From an uncultured Erysipelotrichaceae bacterium (GTDB taxonomy: Bacteria; Bacillota_I; Bacilli_A; RFN20; CAG-826): a DNA stretch of 64,000 bases. The position numbers and the translations under genes are program-made. Positions 9,069 through 24,182 of this stretch are shown here, in pieces. Within the stretch, counting starts at the first letter, position 1, and each line of letters begins with the position of its first letter. Under the pieces are notes generated by a model. It saw only the letters and a list, made by a program, of their open reading frames with translations. It had not been told where the DNA came from and searched no databases. The stretch covers positions 13,907 through 77,906 of the forward strand of contig CADAIJ010000003.1 in assembly GCA_902787955.1 (NCBI GenBank), read 5' to 3'.

Positions 9069-9159
9069 GGAGGATTACCCAAGAGGCTGAAGGGGTGGGC
9101 TTGGAAAGCTCATAGGTTCCGAAAGGGGCGCTAGGGTTCAAATCCCTAATCCTCCGCCA
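9069..9159 (+). tRNA. tRNA-Ser (anticodon GGA).
   Basis: The acceptor stem GGAGGAT/ATCCTCC is followed by G and CCA. The anticodon loop is TTGGAAA. It has a long variable arm and a GGTTCAAATCC T-arm. Confidence 0.85.
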
Positions 9160-9164
9160 TCCTT

Positions 9165-9310
9165 AATTGTCGAGACACGTAAGTAAAAATACGTGTTTTT
9201 TATTACATTTTTAATATATTTACTATTTCTATGCCACCTGGTTGAGAGTCATATAGGGTTACTCTTTAAACCCCTTATAAAAATTGGATAGACACGAGGG
9301 TTTAACCCTC
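9165..9310. repeat. Composite repeat module, copy A. It consists of the motif TTGTCGAGACAC, hairpin 1, an AT-rich spacer and a degenerate hairpin 2.
   Basis: GACACGTAAGTAAAAATACGTGTTTTTT is a plus-strand terminator for the tRNA. AAACCCCTTATAAAAATTGGATAGACACGAGGGTTT is homologous to the modules at 11727-11900 and 23959-24163. Confidence 0.5.
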
Positions 9311-9454
9311 TTAACCATTTTGAAAAAGAAAAGATGATGAATGTTGTATCGCCCATATGTCCATTTTATTGTATGAAAGGTAAGGAGGGATTGTATTCTT
9401 TTTGATTGGGTTTTATATATTGTTTATTATGAAAACGAATTGAATGTTAAATTA

Positions 9455-10705
9455 TTAATTAAGCAAAAACTTTTTTAGTGGAATAACTTTGATTAAAAAT
9501 CCATCGTTTTCAATTATTTTTTCCTCTTCGTAAGTCACAATCATCAAATTGGATTTGGAATGATTAGCTTTTGCAAAAGCGATTAAATTATTAACTTCAC
9601 GATCATAGGCATCTTTTTCATCGATTGAATACGCTACTTGAATCGCGGTATTAAATTTGGAGAGATAAAAATCAATATCAGTTTTATTGCCTTTGAAGTA
9701 GTAAAGACAATCTTTGTGAGTTCTATATAAATGTAGAGCAACTATATTTTCTAATAGCGAACTTCTTTTATTATCTAAGAAAAGGTTTAATATCCCGTTG
9801 TCCATAAAATAATATTTAGGATTACTATTTTTATCTAAAAAAGAAGCACAATAATTTTCTAGTGTAAACAAGAGAAAAGCATCCTTACAATATCCACAAT
9901 AATCGATAACTATATCTTTAGATATCTTATATCCTATGCCAGTAATAATATTTTGAATCTTAGTAAAAGAAAGGTCATGCTTTACTGATTCAGCAATTTT
10001 TTTAACCATCAGTTTGATGCCGTTTTCATTTCTTATATTGTTATGAACAATAATATCATTATAAAGAACCTTTTGATAAATACTCGAAACATATTCTCTT
10101 TTGTTTTTAAAACTAATAGATTCAGGGAAACCACCATTAACAAAATAATCATTTAATAAACTATTTATTTGTCCAATCTCTTTAACAGAGTATCCATCTT
10201 TGTTTGCTTTGTTAGCTCTTAAAAACTCATCGAAAGAATACGTCATAATTTCCTTAGAAATGTATCTTCCACCTAGTTTTGCTTCCACTTCTTTTGAAAG
10301 CATTTTTGCGTTGCTCCCAGTGATATCAACTTTATATCCTTGATTTGCAACACGAATAGCAAACTTTTCCCAACCATCGATATTTTGAATTTCATCAAAA
10401 TAAAAATAATGTTTTTTATTAGTTAATTCTTCCGCGACTAAAAGAATGTCATCAAAATCATTAGCTGTGAATTCAATCAACCTTTCATCATCAAAATTAA
10501 TATAAATGATTTGTTTCCAATCAACACCTTCATTAATTAATTCTTGCACTCTTTTATAAAGTAATGTTGTTTTGCCTGCTCTTCTTAATCCAACTAGTAC
10601 ATAATTAATGTCTTTTTCTAAAACAATATTCCTGTCAATTATCACAGCATCTTTAATAACTTGATGTTGATCAAAGATAATTCTTTTTAAAGTCTCATGA
10701 TTCAT
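9455..10705 (-). CDS. AAA+ ATPase of the COG1373 family (AAA_14 + DUF4143), paralog 1.
   Basis: Walker A GLRRAGKTTLL and a Walker B-like FDEIQ. 416 aa with a DUF4143-like C-terminus. Confidence 0.8.
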   Translation of the reverse strand: MNHETLKRIIFDQHQVIKDAVIIDRNIVLEKDINYVLVGLRRAGKTTLLYKRVQELINEGVDWKQIIYINFDDERLIEFTANDFDDILLVAEELTNKKHYFYFDEIQNIDGWEKFAIRVANQGYKVDITGSNAKMLSKEVEAKLGGRYISKEIMTYSFDEFLRANKANKDGYSVKEIGQINSLLNDYFVNGGFPESISFKNKREYVSSIYQKVLYNDIIVHNNIRNENGIKLMVKKIAESVKHDLSFTKIQNIITGIGYKISKDIVIDYCGYCKDAFLLFTLENYCASFLDKNSNPKYYFMDNGILNLFLDNKRSSLLENIVALHLYRTHKDCLYYFKGNKTDIDFYLSKFNTAIQVAYSIDEKDAYDREVNNLIAFAKANHSKSNLMIVTYEEEKIIENDGFLIKVIPLKKFLLN

Positions 10706-10795
10706 AAATATTCCCTCTGTCGAGTATATTCTACAATATATATAGATATTTGTCGAGTATGTTATTCACTTATTAAAATTTGTGATTAAATATTA

Positions 10796-10993
10796 CTAGC
10801 ATGCGAACAAGCCTAAAGTAGTAGAAAGCAAGAACTCGCCTTTAAAAACAAAATTTTCAGCATATTGAGATTTTGCTAATCTTTTTAAAAATGCATCAAA
10901 GAAATAATCTTGAAGAATAACGTTTGAAGGAACTCCTTTTTGACTAGACAAATTTTTGATTCTAGCCTGTAATGAATTCTTATTAATTTTCAT
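10796..10993 (-). pseudogene. Truncated AbiEii/AbiGii-family nucleotidyltransferase toxin. Only the N-terminal 65 codons remain.
   Basis: SLQARIKNLSSQKGVPSNVILQDYFFDAFLKRLAKSQYAENFVFKGEFLLSTTLGL matches the conserved N-terminus of DUF1814 toxins. A TAG stop then follows, and unrelated sequence carrying the ATPase1 upstream repeats begins. Confidence 0.6.
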
Positions 10994-11606
10994 TCAAAAG
11001 CACCTCCATTAGACTATTTACTTTATCTTCGATTTTCATTTTACGTGCGTATTGGATAAGCCTATTCACATTTTTATCTTTTCTTTTGCTATACCAGGTT
11101 ACACACTTAACAAAAGATTCCGAATCCAGTTTTTTTCTATTTCTAATGAAATCGCATACTGTCTTTTCAATGTCGTAAACTTTGACCTTGTTGCCAAATG
11201 ATGTTTCAACTTCACTAATACCGAGATTATATGTCGTATCTCTTGTATCCGTATGAAGAATCACGCCATCTCTCGGAAGAGGAAATGGGCGATAATTTTT
11301 TGGAGCAGTTGCTTCTAAAGATGTTGGTATAAAATCACCAAGTCTATGAAGATAAGCAGCTCCATAGAAAGAATAAATTAGTTTCGGGTATTGATATTGG
11401 AAAATAAAATAATCATCCGTCATCCAATCTTCAGTTGAATAAAACCCTGGACACTGTTTTATAAGATTATATTTTTTAATATATTGTGAAAGGATGGATG
11501 TCGGAATATTTGCTTCGCTAACATCTCTTCCAGTAACATAACCGCCATTAGATTTAATAATTTTAGAAATCTTTTCAAAATTAGTCATACTTGCATTTCC
11601 AACCAT
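10983..11606 (-). CDS. AbiEi-family (type IV toxin-antitoxin antitoxin-like) protein.
   Basis: 207-aa protein directly upstream of the AbiEii remnant and overlapping it by 11 nt, the typical abiEi-abiEii operon arrangement. Confidence 0.45.
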   Translation of the reverse strand: MVGNASMTNFEKISKIIKSNGGYVTGRDVSEANIPTSILSQYIKKYNLIKQCPGFYSTEDWMTDDYFIFQYQYPKLIYSFYGAAYLHRLGDFIPTSLEATAPKNYRPFPLPRDGVILHTDTRDTTYNLGISEVETSFGNKVKVYDIEKTVCDFIRNRKKLDSESFVKCVTWYSKRKDKNVNRLIQYARKMKIEDKVNSLMEVLLNEN

Positions 11607-11726
11607 ATAATATTGTTTTGTGGTTTAATTTGCAATATGTTTACACATCCTGTTTATAACAACTTATGAGTTCACTAACATTTGATGCTAATGGAACATC
11701 CTCCATTCTTTCTTGAGTTTTATGTC

Positions 11727-11900
11727 CGTGTATCGACATTTGAGGGCACGATTGATTGTGAAGGCACGTACGAAAAGTGCGTGTTATTTCTTATTTTTGG
11801 GTCCTTTATTTGCTATATTTGGTCTTATGAATATAACTTTAATCAATTTGTATCTGGGCACATAAAAACCCCGTGAAAAATCTGGGCGGACACGAGGTTT
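11727..11900. repeat. Composite repeat module, copy B. It consists of the motif GTGTATCGACA, hairpin 1, an AT-rich spacer and hairpin 2.
   Basis: GGCACGTACGAAAAGTGCGTGTTATTTCTTATTTTT ... AAAAACCCCGTGAAAAATCTGGGCGGACACGAGGTTT. It is about 80% identical to copy C at 24010-24163. Hairpin 2 acts as a minus-strand terminator for ATPase2. Confidence 0.6.
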
Positions 11901-12022
11901 GAACATTGTTTAGTTTTTGTTTGATGGTGATTAGCCATCAAGCACAAAGCATTCATATTCAATAAGTTAAATATAAGTTTCATTATTCACATGAACCGTT
12001 GTAGTTTCTACATTTGGGTCGT

Positions 12023-13387
12023 TCATTCTAATAAAAAAGCTAAGTAATGTGGCAACACTAATAATATATTCCCATCTTCATCTATAGATTCCTTGATATT
12101 GAATTCACCAAACTTAATTAATCGTTTAACTTCTGGATAATCTATCTTATTTGAAATCACAGTTTTCGCGGATTTCGTTTTTCCTGATTTAGCCTTAACT
12201 TCCACCAAAGAGATATCTTTTTTATAGCGAGTAATAAAATCAATTTCTAAACCTGATTCTTTACCATAATAAAACAAATCTTTGCCATTCTTAGTAAAAG
12301 CATCAGCGATAATGTTTTCATATAGAGCGCCTTTATAAGAACCTAATTTACCAAATAAAACATCTTCATATACATCTTTTTCTAACATCGCCATAAAAAG
12401 CCCTGTGTCAGCGACATATAATTTAAAACATTCTTCAATCTTATTTCCTGATAATGGTAGTTCAAGTTGTCTAAGATTATAACAATATGTTACTAAACCA
12501 TAATCCACTAACCATTGAATTGCAGGATCATAAATTGTTGAGGTTGCCTTCTTGGCAACTTTTGAATACATAAACTTTTTATTCTCCTTAGCAAGTTGAG
12601 CAGGAATCGATGCGTAAACTTTATTTATTTTAGCGAGCAAAGCTTTATCAAGTTCTTCTTCTTCGTTTTCATTTAGATGCTTGCCATAATCATCTTTATA
12701 TCCTTCTAAAATATCATTTAAAACTGCTCTTACTTGATTTAGATCATTCGTTTTAAGAAAAGTATCTACTGCTTCTGGCATACCTCCTACACATAGATAT
12801 TCTTTAAAATAACGAGTCATCGCTTCATGGATTGGCTGACGAATATTCTCTTTAGCTTCAAAAGAGGATTTTAAATAATTAATGATATCTTGGCTAATAC
12901 CCTTAGCTAATAAGAACTCTTCAAAATCCATTGGTTTCATATAAACAACATGCTCGTAACCAATAGAAGCTCCACCATGATATTTTTTGTTATATCCTTT
13001 TAATCCTAATAAGGAGCCAGAAGCAATCACATCATAACGATCATCATTTTCTACGAATGATTTAAGAGACGCTCTAGCGCCAGAAGATTCTTGAATTTCA
13101 TCTAAAATGATTACTGTTTTATAAGGAATAAATTTAACATCAGGCCTTAATGCGGAAATATTGGTGGTAATAGTATTAACATCTAAATCTCCATTAAATG
13201 CGGTCTTAAGACTTGGCTCTAATTTAAAATTGATATAAATAACATTTTCATAGTTTTTATTTGCAAAATCTTTGATTGATGTTGTTTTGCCAGTTTGTCG
13301 TAATCCTTTTAATAGAAAAACCTTCCTTTTAGTTTTTAAGTTTTCTTTCCAACTAATAAGCTCTGCTTCAATTTTTCTTTTATACAT
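12023..13387 (-). CDS. AAA+ ATPase of the COG1373 family (AAA_14 + DUF4143), paralog 2.
   Basis: Walker A GLRQTGKTT and a Walker B-like ILDEIQ. 454 aa. Confidence 0.8.
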   Translation of the reverse strand: MYKRKIEAELISWKENLKTKRKVFLLKGLRQTGKTTSIKDFANKNYENVIYINFKLEPSLKTAFNGDLDVNTITTNISALRPDVKFIPYKTVIILDEIQESSGARASLKSFVENDDRYDVIASGSLLGLKGYNKKYHGGASIGYEHVVYMKPMDFEEFLLAKGISQDIINYLKSSFEAKENIRQPIHEAMTRYFKEYLCVGGMPEAVDTFLKTNDLNQVRAVLNDILEGYKDDYGKHLNENEEEELDKALLAKINKVYASIPAQLAKENKKFMYSKVAKKATSTIYDPAIQWLVDYGLVTYCYNLRQLELPLSGNKIEECFKLYVADTGLFMAMLEKDVYEDVLFGKLGSYKGALYENIIADAFTKNGKDLFYYGKESGLEIDFITRYKKDISLVEVKAKSGKTKSAKTVISNKIDYPEVKRLIKFGEFNIKESIDEDGNILLVLPHYLAFLLE

Positions 13388-13406
13388 ATAAATACCTCAA
13401 TTTTTA

Positions 13407-13490
13407 GACTTTTCCAAGCGAATTAACGACAATAGTATAGACTTTTCCAAGCGAATAATCAATAACTCTAAGGATTTTTCCAAGCGAATC
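13407..13490. repeat. Three direct repeats of GACTTTTCCAAGCGAAT in the 5' leader of ATPase2.
   Basis: Copies start at 13407, 13440 and about 13474, spaced 33-35 bp. They create the artefactual SLGKV repeats in the 80-aa ORF 13404..13646. Confidence 0.7.
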
Positions 13491-13527
13491 ATAACGGAAG
13501 ATATAGTCATACACTCTTTTTTGTGTA

Positions 13528-13627
13528 TGTGTACCGACAATTGGTATTTCAAACCCTTGTGTGTACGGACAATTGGAGACAGTATTTATTATATAGACAC
13601 GCGCCATCTTAGGAGCGTGTTTTTTTC
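13528..13627. repeat. Partial repeat module D. It consists of two TGTGTACCGACAATTGG-type direct repeats 32 bp apart plus hairpin 1. Hairpin 2 is absent.
   Basis: TGTGTACCGACAATTGG at 13528 and TGTGTACGGACAATTGG at 13560. Then GACACGCGCCATCTTAGGAGCGTGTTTTTTT follows. The architecture matches 23959-24057. Confidence 0.6.
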
Positions 13628-13659
13628 TACCCGCTTTATGATGCAAATAAAAACTTTAT

Positions 13660-13700
13660 ATAACAAAAAGGTGGGAGATGGATAACTCCTCTCCCTACCT
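13660..13700 (-). terminator. Intrinsic terminator for the secreted-protein gene.
   Basis: On the minus strand the hairpin AGGTAGGGAGAGGAGTTATCCATCTCCCACCT is followed by TTTTTGTT. Confidence 0.5.
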
Positions 13701-13783
13701 TATTCGTTGTTTATTTACTAATCTTAATTAGTTTTCTCTTCTTCTACGGATGAAGACAAATCCACTAAAAGAGACTAAGATAA

Positions 13784-14347
13784 TTATTCTGTTGGGCTGC
13801 AATTATATTTAAGGGTAATGGATGTAATTATGTTAGAACCCATAAGAGTGGCTGCTGATATTGAAAAGTATTTATTCCCGTCAAGTTGACTAAATAACTT
13901 TTCTTGCCCTGCGGTTATAGGAGTAAATGCTGCAAAATCATCTAGAGAATTTCTGCCAAGAACTTGAATATTATTATACTCATATCCATTATCCTTAGTA
14001 TCGATTCTTATAGAATAGAGCGATTGGAATTCACTCTTATTTGAAATTATGCCTCCCTTATTTCCCATGAACTGAAGACCTTCGTCGACCTTAGTGAAAC
14101 AATTATTTGCATTATTTACATTAAATGTTAAAGGATTCCCGCTTGTTGTATTAACCACAAAATCAGAATTGACACTTTCAATATCATTTTTGCAGTCAAT
14201 AACAAGCGTATAAAGTGGTATATCAGCTTTAACAATATTAACAGCTTGTAATCCATTAGAGTTAGACATTGCTGCTACACCAACAGTGCCAACGACTGCT
14301 GTACATATAGCGAGTGATGCTAAGATAAGTTTCTTATGACTATTCAT
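13784..14347 (-). CDS. Secreted hypothetical protein with a signal peptide.
   Basis: The N-terminus MNSHKKLILASLAICTAVVGTVGVAA is signal-peptide-like. A perfect RBS AAAGGAGGAATTATT precedes the ATG. Confidence 0.6.
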   Translation of the reverse strand: MNSHKKLILASLAICTAVVGTVGVAAMSNSNGLQAVNIVKADIPLYTLVIDCKNDIESVNSDFVVNTTSGNPLTFNVNNANNCFTKVDEGLQFMGNKGGIISNKSEFQSLYSIRIDTKDNGYEYNNIQVLGRNSLDDFAAFTPITAGQEKLFSQLDGNKYFSISAATLMGSNIITSITLKYNCSPTE

Positions 14348-14413
14348 AATAATTCCTCCTTTTAAGTGAATAGAATAATCCTCTAACGCACTTATGTTAA
14401 TAAAATTAAGAAA

Positions 14414-14432
14414 AGTGTTTCACATTGAAACT
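14414..14432. promoter_or_regulatory. Palindromic operator-like site AGTGTTTCACATTGAAACT.
   Basis: Perfect inverted repeat GTTTCA-CAT-TGAAAC, about 70 nt upstream of the 13784..14347 start codon. The same 19-mer recurs at 20462..20480. Confidence 0.5.
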
Positions 14433-14491
14433 ATTTTCATATTTAAACCACATCTAAAAGCGTTTAATTAAGATTAGAGATTTTAAGAGCA

Positions 14492-14523
14492 ATATAAAAA
14501 CCTCGTGAATAACACGAGGTTAA
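14492..14523 (-). terminator. Intrinsic terminator ending the surface-protein/mscS transcription unit.
   Basis: Perfect 9-bp stem AACCTCGTG/CACGAGGTT with a 5-nt loop, followed on the minus strand by TTTTTAT. Confidence 0.6.
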
Positions 14524-14548
14524 TCTTACAAATTAATCTATCTAGATA

Positions 14549-15571
14549 TTACTTTTTATCATCTATATCCTTAGATAAGTCTTTTTGTTCTTCGACGAAA
14601 GCTTCGACTACTTTTCTATCTTTAACGGATAATTTAGTTTCTTCACTTCCTTGATCATAAGAAACAGTGACTTGTGGGAATGGGATATTGACATTATTAT
14701 CATCAAAGATAATCTTAATTTCTCTATTCAAATCACGTTGAACTTGATAGATATCTGTTTCCTTACATTTAGCGACGAATAAAAGAACAACTGCACTATC
14801 AGCTAATTCGGAAACACCTTTATAGAATGGTCCTTCAACAATAGCAGGGATTTTTTCTTTAATCTTGTCTAAGTTCTCAGCAATAACTTTTTCAATAGCT
14901 TCGATTCTATCGCCATAAGAAACACCAACATAACATTTAGCGACTGATAATTCTTGGGTTTGGTTAACAATGGAACGAATATCACTATTATTCATAATCT
15001 TGATATTGCCACCAGCATCAACTAATTTAGTGGTTCTAATACCGATTGCTTTAACTTCGCCTCTCCAGCCATCGATGATAACGATATCGCCAACTTGGAA
15101 ATCGCCTTCAAAGACGATGAAGATACCGGCGAGGATATCAGACACTAAAGCTTGTGAACCAAGGCCTATAATAAGAGTTAAGACACCAGCAGAAGCAAGC
15201 ATCATTGTGGTATCTGCTCCCCAAGCACCCATAATGATGAATACGGAAGCGATAGCGACCACCCATTTAAGTAAATTTAAGAGAAGTAAGGCTATTGTAA
15301 TTGTCTTCTTCGATTCAAAGGTAATCTTCGCTAAAAGGGAGAGAATGAAGAACGCTGCCGCAGCAATTACAACAATCTGAACTGTTCTAATCATTGCTGG
15401 GAACCCTCTTGTCATCATATAGTTAACAAAGTCCCCTTGTCCTTCAACTGGCACGAAGATCGTTTCACTTCCAAATATCTGTTTATTGAAGACAAATGAA
15501 ACAATAACTCCAGCGGCGAATAGTCCGAATACTATCCAGCCAATTAGTTTAATTACTTTTTTCTTTTCCAT
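14549..15571 (-). CDS. mscS: Small-conductance mechanosensitive channel, MscS family.
   Basis: Three N-terminal TM helices and a conserved MscS beta-domain region (GDxVxIDGxxGEVxxIGIRTTKL). The start was chosen at MEKKK, which is preceded by the RBS AAGGAGG. Confidence 0.8.
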   Translation of the reverse strand: MEKKKVIKLIGWIVFGLFAAGVIVSFVFNKQIFGSETIFVPVEGQGDFVNYMMTRGFPAMIRTVQIVVIAAAAFFILSLLAKITFESKKTITIALLLLNLLKWVVAIASVFIIMGAWGADTTMMLASAGVLTLIIGLGSQALVSDILAGIFIVFEGDFQVGDIVIIDGWRGEVKAIGIRTTKLVDAGGNIKIMNNSDIRSIVNQTQELSVAKCYVGVSYGDRIEAIEKVIAENLDKIKEKIPAIVEGPFYKGVSELADSAVVLLFVAKCKETDIYQVQRDLNREIKIIFDDNNVNIPFPQVTVSYDQGSEETKLSVKDRKVVEAFVEEQKDLSKDIDDKK

Positions 15572-15598
15572 AAAAAATACCTCCTTGAATACATGCAT

Positions 15599-18391
15599 TT
15601 ATCTAACGGAAAAATAATAATTTTGAATTATTGATCGAGTGTATGTGTCGGTTGCTCCCAAATCATAACTATCAAAGGTCATCGACACTGAGACTTTTTT
15701 AGTTTTTAGTAACGCTAATAATTCATCACGATATTCGTAGTCAGTAGGAACAGTAACAACGCCTTCATTAATTCCATTATTAGCGAAGTTAGAAATATCA
15801 AACGGAATGTAGTATGTAGCGGCTTCATTATTAGGATCAAATATTTTTAATTTAGTATTAGATAATTTACCGCTCATACCAGGATAACGGAATAAACCTA
15901 TGTTGAACTCAATGTTATTTGAGTAAACTGTGTCGGATTTTATATAACCACCAACATATTCATTAGTAGTTGAGCCGTTTTCTTGCATATAACCTATTTC
16001 GGTATCATTAATAATCTTTTGACCTGTTCTACTACTAGTGACGTAGAAAAAGGCGTTATTATTATCTAATGCGGTAACATCAAATCCGGTAATTTCGAAG
16101 TATTGGAAACCACTTCTCTTTTCAAGAGGGAAAGTTAATGGGTTATTTGAATCGTTATTATCGGCTAAATAGAATGTTAAATCTAAATATTCATTCGCTT
16201 TATCACTGATACTACCGGAAACACCAATATATGTCTTACTATCGAATGTGTAATATTCATAGTGGATTTGAAGGTTATTAATATGTGAAGTTTCTTCAGC
16301 CATATCAATGATGCCTTCAAATACCACGGTTCCATGATCACTATGATCATAGACAACAAGGGAATAGGTATAGACGCCATTTTCAAAATCAATAGTTGAA
16401 AAATCAAGACTACTCGCACTCTTTATTTCTCCTGATTCTGGTAAGGTCAAATAAGGGTTAAGATTAGTAGCATCACCGCCATCAATTGGAGTTAGCCAAA
16501 GTCCTACTTTTTTATAGAATCCATCCGCAAATGTATCAGTGTAGTCCATGTGCCAACTAAGGACACGCTCATCGGTACTTTCGTAAACTTTAATGCCATC
16601 AAAACTAAGTGAATTGACATGGGCTTCACGACCTTCGCTATCAACGAATGTAATGGTACCGGTAGTATATTGGGTGTATTCTCCAACTGATTCTAAAAGA
16701 TATTCAATCATAAAATTGATTGGTTCATTAGTGTTTAAAGTCATATCGGCTGTATCAGAGACATAGATATAAGTATCATATGGGCTAAATTCAGCGCTTA
16801 GATTCTTATCTTCTAGAGCTTTTTCAGGATCTGGATTATAGAAAGTGATTCTTAATCTAACTAAATCATATTCTGGATCGACATAGTCGACAGTAACTGG
16901 GATTTGATGTTCGGAAGCAGTGAAATCAATTTCATCGTCAATTACAATTGAATTAATCTTGGTTTCTTCAACGAATGTAGCGACGAATTCATAATCTTTA
17001 TCAAGATAAGAAATAATCTTCATACCAGGCTCATATTCACCGCGTCCACTCTTCCAGAATTTAAAGCGATAACCTTCTGGAGGTGTGAATGGGTTTTCAG
17101 GAAGGGTATAAGTTTTGCCTTCTCTTAATGAGATGACAATTGGATCATCGGTCGAATCACCTGGATTAAGAGTGATGTTATATTTAACTGGCGCAGTTGA
17201 AGTATCGAAAACAATATGTTGTTCATCGGTTTCTTTCTCTTCTTCAGCGTAGCGGTAGGTAATGTAATATGAGAATCCATCAGAGTCATCGAAATTAAAC
17301 TGATTTTCATCAGCTGGATCATTAAGCGTGATTGTTTGATATTCACTAGTGACAGCAAGTTCAAATCGTTTAAGATTGTTTTGGCTATCAGATAATATCA
17401 AATTGAAGTTATCGAATAGTTCATCATCATATTCACAAGCGATAAGAACTTCAAAAGTTCCATCTGATAAATCAGGCACTAAATCTAAAGTCACGGAAGC
17501 TTCATCTTCCTTGATTGTGGTTATAAATTCATCATAAATATAGGTGCCAGTAGAAAGGTTTCTAACAATAACTTCATAAGAAGTTTCAGCATTTAAACTA
17601 GTGAAATAGAATTCATTCTTTCCTTCGGTCAAGTCGTATACTTGAAGCTCTGTGCCATCACTTCTGATGCTGATATCATATGTATCTTCTCCATTACCAG
17701 TTAGATATAATCTAACACCAACTTTATTTGCCCATGGAACAAGGTTAGTAACTTTAACAGAACCTTCATCTTTTGGTTCTGGAGTTTCTTCTTTTGTAGT
17801 AACTGTATCTTCGTATAAAACGTAATTATTATAGGTAGTATCAATGACGTAAACGGAATATTCAGTGTTTGATGTCAAATCAACGAATTCACCACTATTA
17901 GAGCCTTCAATGAGTGCATTGGATACAGTATAAGATTCATTCTCAAGTTTAATAATGCACTCATCATTATTGATATCCGCTAAATCGAGTTCATAAACAA
18001 TTGAGTTTGTAGTTGTCTCAATTTGATTCATTTTACATTTAGCGTTAAAGAAAAGATTGATGCCCATTAGTGTTGATAATGTTGTTACTACCACCATTGA
18101 GGCACCTGCTACAGTTGCGATTGTTGTGCCAATAGAGGCAGAGGAGCTGCCATTAGAAGAGCCTTTATTTGAGCCATCTTCTTTCTTGGAAGACTTATCT
18201 TTTCTTTCTTTTTTCTCTTCTTTAATCTTTTTGGACTCATTTAAAACAGGATTATCATTTATTTCATCACGAAGACGATCGTCATTATCAAAGTAGGAAG
18301 TTGATTCGTTATCTTGAGTGCTTCCAAACTCAAAATTAGGATTCTTGCCCTCGTTGGTAATTCTTTCAATGTTAAATTCGTCTCGTTTCAT
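15599..18391 (-). CDS. Large type-II membrane-anchored surface protein. It has a Lys/Glu-rich cytoplasmic N-tail, one TM helix and an extracellular domain of about 800 aa.
   Basis: 930 aa. A Ser/Gly-rich linker precedes a hydrophobic TM at about residues 88-115. The remainder is rich in T, D, Y and N with no enzymatic motif. Confidence 0.6.
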   Translation of the reverse strand: MKRDEFNIERITNEGKNPNFEFGSTQDNESTSYFDNDDRLRDEINDNPVLNESKKIKEEKKERKDKSSKKEDGSNKGSSNGSSSASIGTTIATVAGASMVVVTTLSTLMGINLFFNAKCKMNQIETTTNSIVYELDLADINNDECIIKLENESYTVSNALIEGSNSGEFVDLTSNTEYSVYVIDTTYNNYVLYEDTVTTKEETPEPKDEGSVKVTNLVPWANKVGVRLYLTGNGEDTYDISIRSDGTELQVYDLTEGKNEFYFTSLNAETSYEVIVRNLSTGTYIYDEFITTIKEDEASVTLDLVPDLSDGTFEVLIACEYDDELFDNFNLILSDSQNNLKRFELAVTSEYQTITLNDPADENQFNFDDSDGFSYYITYRYAEEEKETDEQHIVFDTSTAPVKYNITLNPGDSTDDPIVISLREGKTYTLPENPFTPPEGYRFKFWKSGRGEYEPGMKIISYLDKDYEFVATFVEETKINSIVIDDEIDFTASEHQIPVTVDYVDPEYDLVRLRITFYNPDPEKALEDKNLSAEFSPYDTYIYVSDTADMTLNTNEPINFMIEYLLESVGEYTQYTTGTITFVDSEGREAHVNSLSFDGIKVYESTDERVLSWHMDYTDTFADGFYKKVGLWLTPIDGGDATNLNPYLTLPESGEIKSASSLDFSTIDFENGVYTYSLVVYDHSDHGTVVFEGIIDMAEETSHINNLQIHYEYYTFDSKTYIGVSGSISDKANEYLDLTFYLADNNDSNNPLTFPLEKRSGFQYFEITGFDVTALDNNNAFFYVTSSRTGQKIINDTEIGYMQENGSTTNEYVGGYIKSDTVYSNNIEFNIGLFRYPGMSGKLSNTKLKIFDPNNEAATYYIPFDISNFANNGINEGVVTVPTDYEYRDELLALLKTKKVSVSMTFDSYDLGATDTYTRSIIQNYYFSVR

Positions 18392-18439
18392 ATTGTTAAG
18401 AAAGCCTCTTCGTTATTGAACGAAAAGGCTATTTTTGTA

Positions 18440-20392
18440 TTATTTATCTTTTTTCTTAAAGACTTTACCGACACTCTTTTCTTCAACTGGTGTCATTTCG
18501 CCTTTTCTTCTTGTTCTAATGTACCAGAACATAATTCCACCAAGGAGTAAGATTCCTAAGATGAAGGCGATAATAGTGAATGGACATGCATGAACAATTA
18601 AGACGATTAAATCTAAGATGAAGTTAGCAATTAAAGCACATGTTGCAATAAATGTTAATAAGACTTCTTTAGCGGTCATCTTTTCCTTAAACTCATCAAC
18701 CTTAGCGTTATTCTTAATTATTTTTTTATAAACATTTAATCTAAGTAAGACATAAAGTGCTGCCACTAGTGTGATTAAGATATTAATGATTAATAAGATA
18801 ACACCAATACAGAATCCGTGTGATGCACCACCTCCAGCGGCACCTTTAGTGATAAAGGCAAATTCTGATAATTTACTAACTTTGAAGACTAAATCATTTC
18901 CATCAACACTATAGTCACTTACAAATTCCATTTCATCCGCTGAATGGATGTGAAGAATTCTTGCTTTTGACATATCGATGCCATTTGGAATAGCCATGCG
19001 GACTGTAATTATTAATCCTGGTTTAATGTCAGATGGCTGAATAACTGTTTCAACGCCACCAACGATTTGGACTAATTTAACATCGTAAACACTAGCAATT
19101 TTCTCATTCTTTTCGAGCATTTGTTGGATTTTAGCGTAGTCTTCAGCTATATCTTTTTCAGCAACATCAGTTCTAACTTCTACTCTTAACTCAATGTTAT
19201 CTGGAATGACTTCGTCATCAACTTCGACAGTAACATCTGGGTTATTTGGATCGGTGACTTCGGCACCAACGATTTCAAAATCAACTGATGCTGTAGCTTC
19301 ACCAAATGTAACTTTCGCAGTGTATTTACCGACATTAATACATTCAGTTACTTCAGAACCATCTTTATAGTATTTGATTTGAGGGTTTGGGAATGCTTCT
19401 TTGTTATATCCTGATTCAAAAGTGGCTACTTTCTTAGTATTACTGAACTCTAAATCAGTAGGTGCATTAAGTGTTAATGTAAGACCTTCAGTGATTTCAC
19501 ATGGATCGGTTCCACCATTACAAGTTGCGGTAATTTTATTGCCGTCAGCAATGTAATCCCAATCATGATCGTGATTATAAGAATATGGATATCTTAATCT
19601 ACGATAAAGACCGTCATTATAATCTTGAGGTAATGGTTCATTGCCCTTGAAAAGTGTTCTTCCTTCTGTACCTGCTTCATCTGTCCATAAACCAAAATCA
19701 GCGCCTAATTCATAATGATACCTGCTAAAAACAGGGCGAATTGGAAGAACATTTTTAGACACAGCAGTCATATCAAGAGTAACATCTTTACCAAAATAGA
19801 AATAGCATTGTATAGAAGCTTCTTGGGTTTGATTCGCATAGTGACCATAAGCCACAATTGATCTAGTGGTTATTTTAACAGTTTCAGTAAATTCAAAGTA
19901 AGCATGGCAAAATGAGTAAAATGCCCAAGTATAATAATCGTGATTAGCGATAATATTTAATTCTCCATCACCTTTAATTGTCAAATTAGAACAGACAGCA
20001 ATACCATAAATTGCCCATGCTTCAGGTAATTTAATATTATTTACACCCTTCGCATTAATAGTGAACATATCGGAATCACCATAATAAAGAATTACGTGTT
20101 CAACATTGTCAAAACTTTCACCATTATAAGTAAAACTATGTTTAGGCGCTGTCGTAGAATCAAATGTATAGTTATCAAGAGTCAAAGTTGTAGTGCTTGG
20201 GTCATATGACCAGCCATCACCAGAAGTATGGTCAGATGTAACTTCTTCATCTCCGACATAAAGTTTATAGCTTACTGGATCCGCTTTAACTTCTTTAAAT
20301 TCAGCTTGATAATTAATGGCTAATGCAGCGGCAGATAATGATAAAAACGCTGTCGCAAGCGATATAACTAATCTTGATGTTTTCTTTTTCAT
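18440..20392 (-). CDS. Secreted/membrane protein with a signal peptide, a large extracellular domain and a C-terminal multi-TM anchor.
   Basis: The start was reassigned to MKKKTSRLVISLATAFLSLSAAALA, which has the RBS GGAG 9 nt upstream. The C-terminus has 3-4 hydrophobic helices. Confidence 0.6.
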   Translation of the reverse strand: MKKKTSRLVISLATAFLSLSAAALAINYQAEFKEVKADPVSYKLYVGDEEVTSDHTSGDGWSYDPSTTTLTLDNYTFDSTTAPKHSFTYNGESFDNVEHVILYYGDSDMFTINAKGVNNIKLPEAWAIYGIAVCSNLTIKGDGELNIIANHDYYTWAFYSFCHAYFEFTETVKITTRSIVAYGHYANQTQEASIQCYFYFGKDVTLDMTAVSKNVLPIRPVFSRYHYELGADFGLWTDEAGTEGRTLFKGNEPLPQDYNDGLYRRLRYPYSYNHDHDWDYIADGNKITATCNGGTDPCEITEGLTLTLNAPTDLEFSNTKKVATFESGYNKEAFPNPQIKYYKDGSEVTECINVGKYTAKVTFGEATASVDFEIVGAEVTDPNNPDVTVEVDDEVIPDNIELRVEVRTDVAEKDIAEDYAKIQQMLEKNEKIASVYDVKLVQIVGGVETVIQPSDIKPGLIITVRMAIPNGIDMSKARILHIHSADEMEFVSDYSVDGNDLVFKVSKLSEFAFITKGAAGGGASHGFCIGVILLIINILITLVAALYVLLRLNVYKKIIKNNAKVDEFKEKMTAKEVLLTFIATCALIANFILDLIVLIVHACPFTIIAFILGILLLGGIMFWYIRTRRKGEMTPVEEKSVGKVFKKKDK

Positions 20393-20461
20393 AAGAATAA
20401 TCTCCATAAATATATATTTAAGATAATATAGATTTACACATGTATAAATCTTATTAAGCAT

Positions 20462-20480
20462 AGTGTTTCACATTGAAACA
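20462..20480. promoter_or_regulatory. Palindromic operator-like site AGTGTTTCACATTGAAACA.
   Basis: Identical core to 14414..14432. It lies about 70 nt upstream of the 18440..20392 start and in the divergent region shared with the response-regulator gene. Confidence 0.5.
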
Positions 20481-20560
20481 TTTTGCTTTTTTAGCGAAGA
20501 TAACTGTGTAATAATTCTTGTCGATATATTAAATTATCAATATATAGAGGGTGAAACACG

Positions 20561-21157
20561 GTGAAACATACATTTGGTGAAGCGCTTCTAAAAGCAAGAA
20601 AACAAAAAGGATTATCCCAGCAAGAGCTTGCGGAAAGTATACCTGTCACTCGTGCTAGTGTCGCTAACTGGGAAGCAGATAGAAGACTTCCAAACGCTAC
20701 TATTATTGCTAAGATTGCTGAAGTGTTAGAAATAGATGTTAGCGAACTTCTTGATACCGCTAATAAAGATGATATTCACCCAAATGTTATTATCGTTGAT
20801 GACAATAAAATCGTTCTCACAGGTGGAGCACCAATTATTGAAAAAGCCCTTCCTAATGCGAAAGTCGCTTGTTTTACTAAGCCAAAAGAAGCGATTAAAT
20901 ATGCAAAAGAAAACCGCATCTCTTTAGCGTTTTTAGATATCGAACTCGGTTTAACAAACGGGATAGATTTGTGTAATGAGTTACTTGAAATTAACCCACG
21001 TATGAACATTATTTTCTTAACCGCCTATCCAGAATATTCGGTTGATGCATGGAACACTAAAGCGAGTGGGTTTATGGTTAAACCAATCACTTTTGAAGGT
21101 GTTAAAGAACAACTTAAGAAACTAAGACACCCATTCCCAACTGGAGGCATTATTTAA
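20561..21157 (+). CDS. Response regulator with an N-terminal XRE-type HTH and a C-terminal receiver domain.
   Basis: GTG start with the RBS AGAGGG. The HTH is LSQQELAESIPVTRASVANWE. The receiver has IIVDD...FLDIEL...K, with the phospho-acceptor Asp in FLDIEL. Confidence 0.7.
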   Translation: MKHTFGEALLKARKQKGLSQQELAESIPVTRASVANWEADRRLPNATIIAKIAEVLEIDVSELLDTANKDDIHPNVIIVDDNKIVLTGGAPIIEKALPNAKVACFTKPKEAIKYAKENRISLAFLDIELGLTNGIDLCNELLEINPRMNIIFLTAYPEYSVDAWNTKASGFMVKPITFEGVKEQLKKLRHPFPTGGII

Positions 21158-22431
21158 TGCCGGGTGACACTTTAATATATGCCTACTTTTTTATAGGCGG
21201 TGCTTTATTACTTCTTGTTTTATTAGGTTTAGTAGCCTCACTTAGTTTTCCTACTTTAGATAAAAAGAGCAAAATCTTTTTTATTTCATCTTTTTCAATA
21301 CTTGTTTTGAGTATTATCGCTTATATTATCGACTTATTTGTTTATACAAATCCTAGCCTTGCTTGGGTTGGAAAAATAATTGCGTTCTTTGAAACATTTT
21401 TACCATCTGTATTAATGCCACTTCTAACGATCTATGTTTTACTTTGCACGAAAAAAAGTATCCGTAAAAATGCCATTTTCTATATAAATATTGCCTTATG
21501 TGTGGTTTTAATAGCCTTACTTATAGTCACTCAATTTACGGATGGAATTTATTATTTTACCGACGAAAATGAGTTCGTTCGTGGTGACTTCTACTTTGTT
21601 TTAATTGTCCCGATGCTCGCGTTAATTGCCTTAAACCTTCTTCTAATTATTTATAATCGTAAGCTTCTAGATAAGATGTACTTTATCGCATTTCTTATAT
21701 ATTTAATTCCTTTATTAATAGTTATGACTTTGCAGACTTTTATTTCGGTCTTTATCCTTATTGTCTTAGCTATATCTATTAGCGCATTATCGATGTTTGG
21801 AATTATTATGTATGACCAAATAGATCAATACTTACGTCAACAAAGAGAAATAGCGGATCAACGCGCTAGTATCAAGGTGTTACAAATGAGACCTCACTTT
21901 ATCTATAACACAATGACAAGCATCTATTATTTATGTGTACAAGATCCAGAAAAAGCTCAACAAGTAACCCTAGACTTTACAACTTATCTTCGTAAGAACT
22001 TTAATGCAATAACTAGTAAAGAACCTATTCCTTTTAGTGAAGAACTTGAACATACTCGCGCTTATTTAGCGGTCGTTAAAGCTCAATATGAAGATAACCT
22101 TAAAGTGGAATTTGATACACCTCATACTAAGTTCCGTGTACCACCTTTAACTTTACAACCACTTGTTGAAAATTCCGTTAAATACGGACTAAATATTGAT
22201 TCTACTGAACCATTACGTGTTTCTATTAAAACAGAAAAAGTTGATAATGGCAGCGTTATTATCGTTAGCGATACCGGCCCAGGCATTTCAGGTGATGATA
22301 ATGGAGAACCACATATTGCTTTAAATAATATTCGTGAACGTCTATCGTTAATTAAAGGTACATTAACCATTTCACCAAATGAAAATGGGGGCACTATTGT
22401 TAGCATCTATATTCCTGATAATAACAAATAG
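21157..22431 (+). CDS. Sensor histidine kinase, LytS/YehU-like (multi-TM sensor + His_kinase + HATPase_c).
   Basis: About 6 TM helices. The H-box RPHFIYNTMTSIYYL and the SDTGPGISGDD G-box are present. Its start overlaps the stop of the RR gene. Confidence 0.75.
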   Translation: MPGDTLIYAYFFIGGALLLLVLLGLVASLSFPTLDKKSKIFFISSFSILVLSIIAYIIDLFVYTNPSLAWVGKIIAFFETFLPSVLMPLLTIYVLLCTKKSIRKNAIFYINIALCVVLIALLIVTQFTDGIYYFTDENEFVRGDFYFVLIVPMLALIALNLLLIIYNRKLLDKMYFIAFLIYLIPLLIVMTLQTFISVFILIVLAISISALSMFGIIMYDQIDQYLRQQREIADQRASIKVLQMRPHFIYNTMTSIYYLCVQDPEKAQQVTLDFTTYLRKNFNAITSKEPIPFSEELEHTRAYLAVVKAQYEDNLKVEFDTPHTKFRVPPLTLQPLVENSVKYGLNIDSTEPLRVSIKTEKVDNGSVIIVSDTGPGISGDDNGEPHIALNNIRERLSLIKGTLTISPNENGGTIVSIYIPDNNK

Positions 22432-22470
22432 AAACCCCATGAAAAACTGGATGGACACGAGGTTTAAACC
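22432..22470. repeat. Hairpin-2 element of the repeat family, acting as a minus-strand terminator for ATPase3.
   Basis: GAAACCCCATGAAAAACTGGATGGACACGAGGTTTAAACC is homologous to 11865-11900 and 24128-24163. Confidence 0.5.
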
Positions 22471-22476
22471 ATTTCA

Positions 22477-23730
22477 CTATATAGAGGAAACAGGAAGAAC
22501 ATAACAATCTTCACCGATTGAATAAATCGCGTGAGTAGTACACACTATTGCATTTTTGGTGCGTCTAAGCTTTGTTGATTTGAATAAGTCAAAGGCTTTT
22601 ATATCGTCCTTTTTATATGTTTCTCCACTTTTTAATTCCACTAGAGAAATATTACCGTCGAATACTATCACTAAATCAACTTCATTCTTATCAAAGGTTC
22701 TAAAATAATAGAAAGATGTATTGACATCCTTGTGGTTGTTTTTATAACTTTTAAGTATTTCATTGATAATATAAGTTTCAACGATATGTCCCTTTAAATA
22801 AGAGTTTTTTAATGTCTCTGGAGAATTAACTCTTGCTAAATAACACGCCAATCCTGTATCGGAGAAATATACTTTTGGTCTTTTAACAACCCGTTTAGAA
22901 ACACTTTCTTCATAATATGGTTGCAATAAATGGATTATATTTCCAGCTACCAAAACACTAATCCAAGATTGTACGGTTTTCATATCTATCCCAACTTCTT
23001 TTGCTAAATTGTCATAGATTAATTCTTGGCCAGTAAGAGAAGCTAATATTGTCATAAAATTAATGAATTTTTGCTTGTCTTTTAATGTTATTAAATCCGA
23101 GACGTCTCTTTCTAAGTAAGTTGTTACGTAATCTGAATAAAATGAACCAGTATCCAAATCCTTATTATCATAAAGTTCTGGATAAAAGCCTCTTACAATG
23201 TATTCATAAAGGTTATTCGTTTCAATCATATATGTATTACATCTTTCGTTAATATGATTGATATCAATTACAAATGGTTGTTCAGAAACATTATTAATCT
23301 CACTCAGAGATAATGGTTCCATTGAAATAAGACCAACCCGACCAGACATAGACTCAGTAATGCCTTTCATAAGTTTATAGGCTTGAGAGCCTGTCAAAAC
23401 ATACAAGCCTCTCTTTTTTCCAGACTTAATATGAGCATCCACTGCACCTTCTAAATAATCAAATAGCTCTGGAGCTTTCTGTATTTCATCAATAATATAT
23501 GGAGCTGGATGAAGAGATAAAAATTCAGCAGGATCATTTTTGGCTGCGTTTCTAACAAGTGGATCCGCTAAAGAAACATACCCGAACCCTAAATCTTTTT
23601 CAATCAAACCACATAAAGTCGTTTTTCCGACTTGCCTAGCGCCTGTAATAACGGTAACGGCTTTGTTTTTAATTGTTTTAATAATTTCTCGATAAATTGT
23701 TCTTTCAATCATTATTTTTACCTCAAACAT
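22477..23730 (-). CDS. AAA+ ATPase of the COG1373 family (AAA_14 + DUF4143), paralog 3.
   Basis: Walker A GARQVGKTTL and a Walker B-like IIDEIQ. 417 aa. Confidence 0.8.
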   Translation of the reverse strand: MFEVKIMIERTIYREIIKTIKNKAVTVITGARQVGKTTLCGLIEKDLGFGYVSLADPLVRNAAKNDPAEFLSLHPAPYIIDEIQKAPELFDYLEGAVDAHIKSGKKRGLYVLTGSQAYKLMKGITESMSGRVGLISMEPLSLSEINNVSEQPFVIDINHINERCNTYMIETNNLYEYIVRGFYPELYDNKDLDTGSFYSDYVTTYLERDVSDLITLKDKQKFINFMTILASLTGQELIYDNLAKEVGIDMKTVQSWISVLVAGNIIHLLQPYYEESVSKRVVKRPKVYFSDTGLACYLARVNSPETLKNSYLKGHIVETYIINEILKSYKNNHKDVNTSFYYFRTFDKNEVDLVIVFDGNISLVELKSGETYKKDDIKAFDLFKSTKLRRTKNAIVCTTHAIYSIGEDCYVLPVSSI

Positions 23731-23958
23731 ATTATATCTCGTAATTTTTGGAGTTCAACTCCTATTTTTTCATAACTAAATAGTAAGCGAAATCACTAAA
23801 CATTTTATGTTTTCAATACAAAAACCGAAAGATTACGGATTAAATAACCGAAACAAAACTAAAAGAATCCATCAATAAAACATGTTATTTCTTTTAAAAA
23901 ATAGGTTTTTATAAAAATCGACCAAAACAACAGTGCAATGCGATTTTAGTCGAAGAAG

Positions 23959-24163
23959 TATGTGTATCGACAATTAGTCTTAGAACCCTGTATGTGTATC
24001 GACAATTGAAGACATCAATGATTGTCAAGACACGTATAAAAAAGTTCGTGTTTTTTCTTATTTTTTGGCATTTTTTGCTATATTAGGTCTTGGAACACGG
24101 TTTTATTCAATTTATAACTGGACACATAAAAAACCCCGTGAAAATCTCGACGGACACGAGGTT
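23959..24163. repeat. Composite repeat module, copy C. It consists of two TATGTGTATCGACAATT direct repeats 32 bp apart, hairpin 1, an AT-rich spacer and hairpin 2.
   Basis: Direct repeats at 23959 and 23991. GACACGTATAAAAAAGTTCGTGTTTTTT at about 24037. AAAAAACCCCGTGAAAATCTCGACGGACACGAGGTTT at about 24127. Confidence 0.6.
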
Positions 24164-24182
24164 TATACTTTTTTTGCAATAA

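Follow-up and report, generated by a model that had tools for sequence, protein, structure and literature searches.

Two classes of spaced repeats in a tRNA-Ser island with PDC-S01 ATPase genes from an uncultured Erysipelotrichaceae bacterium

We analyzed a 64,000-nucleotide stretch of the genome of an uncultured Erysipelotrichaceae bacterium (assembly GCA_902787955.1, contig CADAIJ010000003.1, positions 13,907 to 77,906), referred to here as the window. Between a gene for tRNA-Ser(GGA) and rhaA, the window encodes three ATPases that match the candidate defence gene PDC-S01, along with short direct repeats spaced 32 or 33 nt apart. These spaced repeats fall into two unrelated classes: promoter repeats that are specific to each ATPase subfamily (class A), and pairs belonging to a module that we call S (class B). 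The joint explanation that we favor as probable is that the former are operator repeats of promoters and that S is the end of mobile cassettes inserted at tRNA-Ser.

Genes and repeats between tRNA-Ser and rhaA

The three ATPase genes are on the minus strand (ATPase1, 9455..10705; ATPase2, 12023..13387; ATPase3, 22477..23730) and encode proteins with AAA_14 and DUF4143 domains (Pfam). They match different PADLOC models for PDC-S01 (PDLC04787, E = 1e-89; PDLC04786, E = 2e-133; PDLC04790, E = 3e-98, respectively), and by hidden Markov model match and domain architecture all three are assigned to this candidate defence gene. Orthologs of ATPase1 with 89-96% identity are encoded in L064, L101 and L066 (the prefix L denotes loci compared with the window). 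Homologs of ATPase3 number in the thousands, and the few that are named come from metagenome-assembled genomes (MAGs) of Bacilli or Acholeplasmatales. Most of them are 411 aa long, so the true start of ATPase3 is probably Met7 at 23712, not the ATG at 23730 that opens the 417-aa open reading frame (ORF). This start is preceded by a GAGG ribosome-binding site, and 23731 is the last position of the conserved -10. ATPase2 is predicted to fold as an AAA+/STAND-like protein in which a helix-strand segment hints at a winged helix; its C-terminal alpha/beta domain is nuclease-like by family assignment. A solved structure for ATPase2 was not found by sequence search.

Read directly from the sequence, the 10-mer TGTCGAGTAT occurs at 10718 and 10751 (offset 33 nt). 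The sequence GACTTTTCCAAGCGAAT occurs at 13407 and 13440, with a third copy from 13473 that has one mismatch (GATTTTTCCAAGCGAAT; spacing 33 and 33). A further pair consists of TGTGTACCGACAATTGG at 13528 and TGTGTACGGACAATTGG at 13560, which differ by a single C-to-G mismatch, and TATGTGTATCGACAATT is found at 23959 and 23991. The related sequence ATTGTCGAGACA at 9166-9177, after tRNA-Ser, is inverted with respect to the copies at 13.5 and 24.0 kb. Thus, all of the repeats listed in a first-pass annotation of the window are present, although two of the copies given as exact carry one mismatch and the third 17-mer starts at 13473. The repeats are non-random and conserved. Pattern searches of the window gave four exact matches to the 15-mer TGTGTAYSGACAATT, each at a reported site, and three to TTTTCCAAGCGAAT, all within the array at 13407-13489. 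The 10-mer pair at 10718/10751 is unremarkable against chance by a rough estimate, and is backed instead by its orthologs.

The pairs at 13.5 and 24.0 kb sit inside larger homologous blocks of up to ~220 nt, as found by repeat search and alignment. Full blocks (~190-220 nt) are at 11723-11911 and 23958-24175, and a shorter copy follows tRNA-Ser (9158-9311). Partial blocks retain the 5' part alone (13525-13630) or the 3' part alone (22428-22474). Each full block consists of the repeat pair, module S, and then a second module, M, which is made up of an inverted S-like unit (half of a plus strand terminator hairpin), a middle part, and a minus strand terminator-like hairpin. By reading, the G-U pairs fit the plus strand for the 5' hairpin of M and the minus strand for its 3' hairpin. 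The M 3' motif GACACGAGGKTT is matched exactly at four positions, or at five if one mismatch is allowed, versus 0.17 expected, and the four are within the homologous blocks. S and M are confined to 9-24 kb of the window. A lone S-like unit at 36302-36316 (TTTGTATCGACAATA, two mismatches), at the 5' end of an ORF (34767-36314) and with no second unit or M nearby, is probably a chance match. Comparison of M, S and the promoter repeats R1 and R3 (described below) with Rfam gave no match at E <= 1 other than the tRNA-Ser; M or S as a structured RNA or riboswitch was rejected, as Rfam returned nothing at the gathering threshold or at E <= 1.

The region can be divided into an anchor, three units and a leftover flank. 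The anchor is tRNA-Ser(GGA) (9069-9159, plus strand; ARAGORN, Rfam), whose CCA end forms the left, attB-like end of the array. Unit 1 (9160-11748) starts with M copy A, type 2 (9160..9311, plus strand), which has the inverted S-like unit ATTGTCGAGACACG and a minus strand hairpin of AAACCCC and GACACGAGGGTT. ATPase1 follows, preceded on its own strand by R1 (10717..10760, minus strand), in which two copies of ATACTCGACA(A/G) lie 33 nt apart. Beyond R1 are remnants of abiE (10796..11606, minus strand; PADLOC), namely abiEi (10983-11606) and a fragment for the N-terminal 65 aa of abiEii (10796-10993). The right end of this unit is S copy B (11723..11748, plus strand), which has the single unit TGTCCGTGTATCGACATTTGAGGGCA. 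Unit 2 (11749-13581) begins with M copy B, type 1 (11749..11909, plus strand), which provides the minus strand terminator of ATPase2. This is followed by ATPase2, by R3 (13407..13489, minus strand; three copies of ATTCGCTTGGAAAA(G/A)TC with a 33-nt period) and, at the right end, by S copy C (13525..13581, plus strand), where two units 32 nt apart end in GGAGACA.

Unit 3 (13582-24014) starts with a hairpin, GACACGCGCC..GGAGCGTGTTTTTTT (13596..13630, plus strand), that is a diverged 5' part of M. After 8.8 kb of other genes comes M copy E (22428..22474, plus strand), of which only the 3' part is present; it adjoins the stop codon of a histidine kinase gene on its left and the ATPase3 unit on its right. 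The left boundary of the ATPase3 unit falls between GGTTTAAAC and CATTTCAC, and a complete M occupies the same junction in L064. Upstream of ATPase3 is a promoter-like site (23731..23762, minus strand) with the palindrome GGAGTTGAACTCC over TTGAAC (23758-23753) and with TATAAT at 23736-23731. The right end is S copy D (23958..24014, plus strand; two units 32 nt apart, ending in GAAGACA), whose left flank, TCGACCAAAACAACAGTGCAATGC, is also present on S copies beside other ATPase genes. The leftover flank is M copy D, type 1 (24015..24173, plus strand), which abuts rhaA (24183-25415, minus strand) and probably corresponds to the flank that adjoins tRNA-Ser in island-free relatives.

Modules S and M in related genomes

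S is a ~57-bp module made up of two units at a distance of 32 nt; its core (GACAATTGG) is invariant, and it terminates in GGAGACA. We identified 60 distinct copies in rumen-type genomes and metagenomes, with a period of 32 in 56 of them. The copies end in GACAATTGGAGACA or a close variant, and the sequence beyond this end is unrelated from copy to copy, although usually a terminator hairpin; an M-type hairpin follows 26 of the 60. Another feature, common to 20 of the 60, is a position after the stop codon and terminator of an ORF ending in KYGIYIN. This ORF encodes a large serine recombinase (Resolvase, Recombinase and Zn_ribbon_recom domains, Pfam). Pairs recur several times per locus, and L018 has two units, spaced by 32 nt, at the site homologous to S copy B. 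When metagenomes were scanned for the double repeat, 55 loci were recovered, ~45 of which belong to the S family. The same scan of viral contigs returned zero hits, and no circular junction or attP-bearing viral contig; carriage of S on phage genomes was rejected on the basis of these zero hits.

Autonomous elements are encoded in L092, L117 and L119, with two helix-turn-helix (HTH) regulators, small ORFs, a VapE-like primase, two tandem recombinases (~560 and ~550 aa) and S. They are ~9 kb long and satellite-like, with S placed ~45-70 nt beyond the final stop codon. Elsewhere, S is found upstream of PDC-S01 ATPase genes in reverse orientation, including 96-97% identical orthologs of ATPase3 in L063, L064, L083 and L101, and some copies follow DUF234-type ATPase genes. 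The units between successive S copies are 0.35-3.9 kb long and contain up to a handful of mostly reverse-oriented ORFs, with cargo that includes PDC-S01 ATPases, Fic proteins and HTH-like regulators. In L117, for example, a recombinase gene with S and M is followed by S and M with TIR and AAA_21 genes, and then by a third S with genes for AbiH and a deaminase. The recombinase of L119 is 79% identical and its S co-varies (TGACATTTGG ... TTAAGGACA at the junction; terminus TGACATTTAAGGACA); the next cassette along retains an S of its own type. Between L092 and L117 the recombinases share 98% identity, but their S units do not agree in the variable 7-10 nt on the 5' side; thus, the GACAATTGG core and the terminus are the likely recognition elements.

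The M 3' motif was found in species-representative genomes at 50 loci, ~35 of which are from rumen MAGs labelled 'Bacilli' or 'Erysipelotrichaceae'. In those ~35 loci the whole ~165-nt M is conserved with sharp ends, and three subtypes can be distinguished. The left neighbour of M is either the CCA end of tRNA-Ser (GGA in most loci, GCT in L064 and L038; ARAGORN) or an S pair. In L032 and L038, tRNA-Ser, M and rhaA adjoin with nothing between, and in L013 the order is tRNA, M type 2, ~350 nt, M type 1 and rhaA. Relative to these three loci, which lack the intervening genes, 9.2-24.2 kb of the window is therefore an island. L064 has tRNA-Ser(GCT), M, an ATPase3 ortholog with S, a further M, and an ATPase1 ortholog, in that order. 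In L083, ATPase3 and its S are flanked on both sides by non-M sequence.

One ATPase cassette keeps its left end, ..GAAATATCCCCAAGGATTTTGTCC.. (GAAATATCCCCAAGGATTTTGTCCAAGGGG), across many contexts. It abuts the CCGCCA end of tRNA-Ser in L058/L094 and L107, and the GGAGACA end of S in L055, L099, L073 and L119. A similar start hairpin with other cargo is present after tRNA-Ser in L079 and after S in L015/L018, and both variants of the first 8-9 nt of the cassette occur with both kinds of partner. Since the same cassette is found on either partner, the 3' end of tRNA-Ser and the end of S are interchangeable as left partners. The only junction sequence common to the two is CA.

Two further observations concern these flanks. 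At ~5100-5130 of L021 (locus coordinates, minus strand), M is preceded not by a full tRNA but by ..GAGTTTAAATCCGCTGTCTCCCGGCA, which resembles the 3' part of a tRNA (T arm and acceptor) and was not called by ARAGORN; an intact tRNA-Ser(TGA) is 1.6 kb away. This sequence may be a displaced att remnant. Close homologs of ATPase3 are mostly on contigs of 1.3-3 kb, and in L001 the sequence available upstream of the gene is 122 nt. Repeated S and M flanks may break assemblies and so leave ATPase genes alone on short contigs.

We predict that S is the conserved right end of mobile units that would integrate one after another at the CCA end of tRNA-Ser. A recombinase would bind S and exchange strands at or next to the terminal CA. 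The small members would be recombinase-less cassettes that typically begin with a terminator, continue with one to four genes, mostly in reverse orientation and under a promoter of their own, and close with S. By this reading of the sequences, the S pairs are cassette ends rather than regulators of the ATPase genes, and 9.2-24.2 kb of the window would be a recombinase-less array of defence cassettes at tRNA-Ser(GGA), with three such units and a leftover M flank, comparable to a composite island of the staphylococcal cassette chromosome (SCC). Several traits of serine-recombinase elements were found: a recombinase gene beside S in related loci, a specific site at tRNA-Ser, and tandem arrays with recombinase-less members (the three units of the window, and L055, L099, L117 and L119).

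Other results weigh against this prediction. Lacking in the window is any recombinase gene (tblastn, and Pfam searches of the larger ORFs of the island), and therefore mobility of its units would be historical or dependent on a recombinase encoded elsewhere in the genome. Large serine recombinases act on imperfectly palindromic sites of ~40-50 bp. At the junctions of S with M, a ~40-bp quasi-palindrome arises from the second unit together with the inverted unit, but its right half is not conserved where S adjoins other sequence, and both this variable half-site and the second direct repeat upstream are atypical of these enzymes. Neither an intact attP circle nor the left end of an autonomous element was found. 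An apparent left junction in L119 was rejected as the element's left end; it is probably internal, because the VapE and glycosyltransferase genes there are co-oriented and overlapping. Finally, the flanks of the units inside S occur in mosaic combinations, which could arise by homologous recombination among abundant repeats.

The same mosaic flanks, together with the lack of an observed excision product, are consistent with S and M as a passive intergenic repeat (a REP or BOX element, or the relic of a miniature inverted-repeat transposable element) or the scar of an old duplication, spread by homologous recombination and without a dedicated protein. The array would then reflect a recombination-prone hotspot beside tRNA-Ser. 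The two convergent terminator-like hairpins of M would be useful between any genes, and the M copies of the window, at only 72-84% identity, are not recent. However, a passive repeat does not account well for a sharp one-sided boundary at GGAGACA in 60 copies, for tight physical linkage to the stop codons of recombinase genes, or for an S core that co-varies with a diverged recombinase. Also difficult to reconcile with it are the precise joining of one cassette start to either the tRNA-Ser CCA or S, and the restriction of both modules to a single part of the window. We consider passive spread rather unlikely, and retain S as a probable cassette end.

Promoter repeats of the ATPase subfamilies

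Among the class A repeats, the middle copy of R3 is exactly the 17-nt spacer between TTGATT (-35-like, 13462-13457) and TATACT (-10-like, 13439-13434), and the 33-nt unit consists of a -35-like hexamer, the conserved 17-nt core, a -10-like hexamer and four bases. Thus, the array is a tandem of promoter-like units in which the spacer is the conserved part. The copy nearest ATPase2 was described in the first-pass annotation as overlapping the ribosome-binding site; it ends 20 nt from the ATG, beside GAGG, with no overlap.

Orthologs of ATPase2 (89-58% identity) all carry the array just upstream of the ribosome-binding site, in two to four copies with a period of 33. There are four copies of ATTCRYTWGGAAAARTC in L112/L113 (89% ATPase2 identity), two of AAACTCGCTTGGAAAAGTC in L114 (75%), three of AAACTCCCTTGAAAAAGTC in L115/L116 (71%), three in L122 (64%), and four with ..TTGAAAAAGTG in L123-L126 (58%). 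The arrays are conserved and co-vary with the linked ATPase2 gene across lineages, and lineage-specific substitutions are mostly common to the copies within a locus, most clearly in L115/L116. Neighbouring genes differ, and include those for FTHFS and DUF951; a large ORF of unknown function and an ORF with a faint peptidase M26 hit; a PqqD/ABC-transporter cluster; HD and HTH proteins; and a hydrolase and peptidase M3. The R3 17-mer was found nowhere else among the ~110 loci examined. In every lineage the core is the 17-nt spacer between TTGAAA or TTGATT and TATAAT, TATACT or TATCAT. Conservation of the spacer between variable hexamers suggests that a protein binds there.

The array could instead be a set of duplicated promoters that raise or buffer expression, with the 17-mer unbound, generated by replication slippage and kept by variation in copy number. 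The -35-like and -10-like hexamers in each 33-nt unit, and the range of two to four copies, are consistent with this. Yet a promoter spacer normally drifts freely, and here it is the best conserved part while the hexamers vary. The exact 33-nt period over 58-89% protein identity and the changes shared within a locus also argue that the core is constrained, and we regard promoter duplication as an unlikely explanation.

The promoter arrays are, on the evidence of this conservation, probably functional cis-elements. A sequence-specific protein would occupy adjacent R3 cores along the same face of the helix and so set expression, and the location of the core in the spacer is where a bound protein would control access of RNA polymerase. 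The most likely binder is the ATPase itself, as no other gene is inherited with the array and the predicted fold of the ATPase is similar to those of Orc1/Cdc6 and STAND ATPases. We infer from this that the ATPase may regulate its own gene through the promoter repeats. AbiEi and the XRE-type response regulator of the window, which had been put forward as candidates, are unlikely binders because the orthologous loci that keep the arrays lack both.

R1 and the ATPase3 palindrome are the counterparts of R3 in the other two subfamilies. R1 overlaps TCGACA-17-TAGAAT in a consensus scan (TCGACA 10756-10751, -35-like; TAGAAT 10733-10728, -10-like), with its upstream copy covering the -35-like TCGACA and its downstream copy at the expected transcription start. 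Across four orthologous loci, none of the 20 columns of the R1 cores is variable, versus 7 of the 23 columns between them (Fisher p = 0.01). For ATPase3, orthologs with 69-78% identity in unrelated neighbourhoods share a promoter-like site ~40 nt from the ATG, in which an inverted repeat over the -35 is followed by TATAAT. The repeat is GGAGTTGAACTCC in the window, CGGAGTTGAATTCCG in L002 and TGGAGTTGAACTCCA in L005; the outer bases of that in L003 (AGTAAGTTGTAGTTACT) differ, but by reading it is still palindromic.

Operator function at these sites has its own difficulties. Promoter assignments are consensus matches that are not enriched over shuffled sequence in these regions, the evidence for R1 is from close orthologs (89-96% identity), and the winged helix of STAND-type ATPases is often structural and not DNA-binding.

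An alternative is a single regulatory role for all of the repeats. S would then control the divergent ATPase gene and, together with the other repeats, serve as an operator for one regulator or for the ATPases. The window and ~10 other loci do have S upstream of an AAA_14/DUF4143 gene in reverse orientation, and TCGACAA is common to the S unit and the R1 unit. The first-pass annotation similarly proposed one motif across the three paralogs, with the shared core TTGTCGA(T/G)A. This core joins two repeat classes, and a single shared motif was rejected because the three repeat types differ in orientation, position and distribution; every ATPase subfamily has its own promoter element. The TGTGTATCGACAATT pair is not an ATPase element, as the more distant ATPase3 orthologs (69-78% identity; L002-L006) keep the promoter without the S pair. 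It is also found after recombinase genes, after DUF234-type ATPase genes and beside unrelated cargo, including Fic and XRE genes, and for one-third of the S copies the upstream neighbour is a recombinase gene in the same orientation. Relative to the gene, R1 units point the opposite way from S units. The S pairs had further been suggested as -35 elements, but in the window they are separated from the start codons by 135-270 nt and fall outside the conserved promoter-like sites (at ATPase3, ~200 nt further upstream), and by reading no -10-like partner is conserved between S copies. Taken together, a common operator role is quite unlikely. The earlier guess that the repeats serve a dedicated regulator or a recombinase is better borne out, since its two options cover what was found: the 17-mer array and the 10-mer pair are on promoter-like sites kept in orthologous loci, and the 15-17-mer pairs are linked to a recombinase in related genomes.

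Island cargo, known systems and significance

The 8.8 kb between the M 5' hairpin and the M 3' part of unit 3 encode a 187-aa ORF, an MscS-like channel, proteins of 930 and 673 aa, and a two-component system consisting of an XRE-type response regulator and a histidine kinase (20561-22431). Among the products of 13.8-22.4 kb are large proteins without Pfam matches, one of which has a weak sub-threshold hit. M appears split by ordinary-looking genes that are absent between tRNA-Ser and rhaA in relatives such as L013; these genes may be cargo or may have arrived by a rearrangement. A 57-nt block is present at 14389-14445 and again at 20437-20493 (75% identity), with the common palindrome-containing core AGTGTTTCACATTGAAAC. 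These blocks are upstream of two membrane-protein genes (starts at 14347 and 20461, minus strand). The second is between the 673-aa gene and the divergent genes for the response regulator and histidine kinase, and may be the operator of the XRE-type response regulator.

The abiEi antitoxin gene has no intact toxin gene beside it. Only the 65-aa N-terminal fragment of abiEii is left, and the ATPase1 unit with its promoter repeats occupies the place of the missing part. In L018, the gene for an AbiEi with 96% identity has next to it, in the place of AbiEii, an ORF that extends as far as the locus does. The truncation junction, GATTAAATATTACTAGCATRCGAACAA, is also present in L056, and the truncation is therefore an inherited rearrangement. 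A small ORF after M type 2 (~9344-9415) is in a region that aligns with sequence adjoining M type 2 elsewhere, close to the end of a phage-like ORF, and may itself be a remnant. At 4001-8596 of L003 (GCA_963613795.1), three diverged AAA_14/DUF4143 paralogs are encoded in a row without S or M motifs. Thus, clustering of PDC-S01 genes is not restricted to the S/M system.

The closest known system for S and M, by analogy, is the SCC/psi-SCC composite island moved by CcrAB. SCC elements encode the large serine recombinases CcrA and CcrB, use one chromosomal site at the 3' end of a housekeeping gene and form composite arrays. The autonomous elements described here likewise have two tandem large serine recombinase genes and would integrate at one conserved site at the 3' end of a housekeeping gene, and accretion appears to be serial and head-to-tail, with recombinase-less cassettes in the same arrays and with accessory or defence cargo. 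The target differs (the CCA end of tRNA-Ser instead of rlmH), as do the hosts, which are uncultured rumen Bacilli and not staphylococci. In place of a repeated core of ~18 bp, the junctions have a 57-bp module on one side only, in which two repeats are phased at 32 bp. A further difference is that the autonomous elements resemble phage satellites, with an HTH pair and a VapE-like primase, and recombination is here predicted from sequence comparison. A composite island with psi-SCC is described in bioRxiv 10.1101/336396.

Integrons provide a second comparison. As in an integron, a recombinase gene is followed by a site and then by small cassettes that each end in a conserved site, and new cassettes appear beside the anchor site. 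The attI site of integrons carries two accessory direct repeats that bind the integrase. However, the recombinase here is a serine and not a tyrosine recombinase, the cassettes have their own promoters and are mostly reverse-oriented, and the anchor can be a tRNA gene. An integron with attC sites was rejected, given no tyrosine recombinase in the scanned proteins or Pfam hits and no obvious palindrome in S by inspection.

Phage-inducible chromosomal islands (PICI), of which an HTH pair and a primase are established features, and the related Staphylococcus aureus pathogenicity islands (SaPI) are also similar, in that they are adjacent to tRNA genes and form tandem arrays with degraded, integrase-less members and defence-rich cargo. 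The same applies to tycheposons (bioRxiv 10.1101/2020.12.28.424599). All of these mostly use tyrosine integrases and duplicate part of the tRNA, in contrast to the junctions of the window, where no tRNA segment is duplicated and S is the conserved junction module. With iterons and ORB sequences, R3 shares direct repeats (17 nt) at fixed helical phase in two to four copies beside an Orc1/Cdc6-like AAA+ gene. It differs in lacking a replication gene, an AT-rich unwinding element or a plasmid context, and in that the repeats are promoter spacers just upstream of a ribosome-binding site at chromosomal loci of many contexts. The iteron-like label of the first-pass annotation does not apply in the strict sense, with no rep gene and no origin context. 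The repeat spacing fits, but no Rep family was identified, and the neighbours are AAA_14/DUF4143 genes and unrelated chromosomal genes.

Very unlikely is that S forms the end of a DDE-type transposon (Tn7-, Mu- or Tn552-like) with two phased transposase-binding sites: read from outside the S end starts with 5'-TGTCTCC, fitting the TG...CA rule, and two direct sites at one end, a terminal CA, tRNA-adjacent insertion and tandem accretion resemble Tn7-like elements (see also PMC8649781), but no TnsB/MuA-type or other DDE transposase and no TnsC-type ATPase was found in the window or among Pfam-annotated neighbouring ORFs, no target-site duplication was seen, and the repeat pair is at one end only, the other cassette end lacking a matching inverted array and having at most one inverted unit, in M-type starts. 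Tn7- or Mu-like ends were thus rejected, and a serine recombinase is retained as the enzyme that would act at S.

In the literature searched there is no evident description of S, M, the promoter arrays, or the regulation or cassette mobility of PDC-S01. PDC-S01 is reported to be the commonest single defence locus among rumen genomes (PMC13356809), and small serine recombinases have served as markers of defence genes (PMC13552941). A broader interpretation, which we put forward tentatively and consider possible but doubtful, is that the S units constitute an integron-like platform for gene capture driven by the large serine recombinase pair, and that PDC-S01 ATPases are sequence-specific binders of their own phased promoter repeats. 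Self-promoted defence cassettes (PDC-S01, AbiE, Fic, TIR, AbiH and others), each with a one-sided 57-bp site, would be captured serially at the tRNA-Ser CCA or at the previous S, and could be mobilized in trans.

If the ATPases do bind phased repeats, this would be the first handle on the control of a very abundant candidate defence gene. The phased, co-varying promoter array offers a direct test of DNA binding and self-repression by the ATPase, and bears on the sensing of infection. S and M give the exact boundaries of small defence cassettes and of the serine-recombinase elements that probably move them. These boundaries allow cassette cargo to be extracted systematically from rumen metagenomes and new defence genes to be discovered by guilt by association, and the recombinase with its att site may be a new pair for genome engineering.

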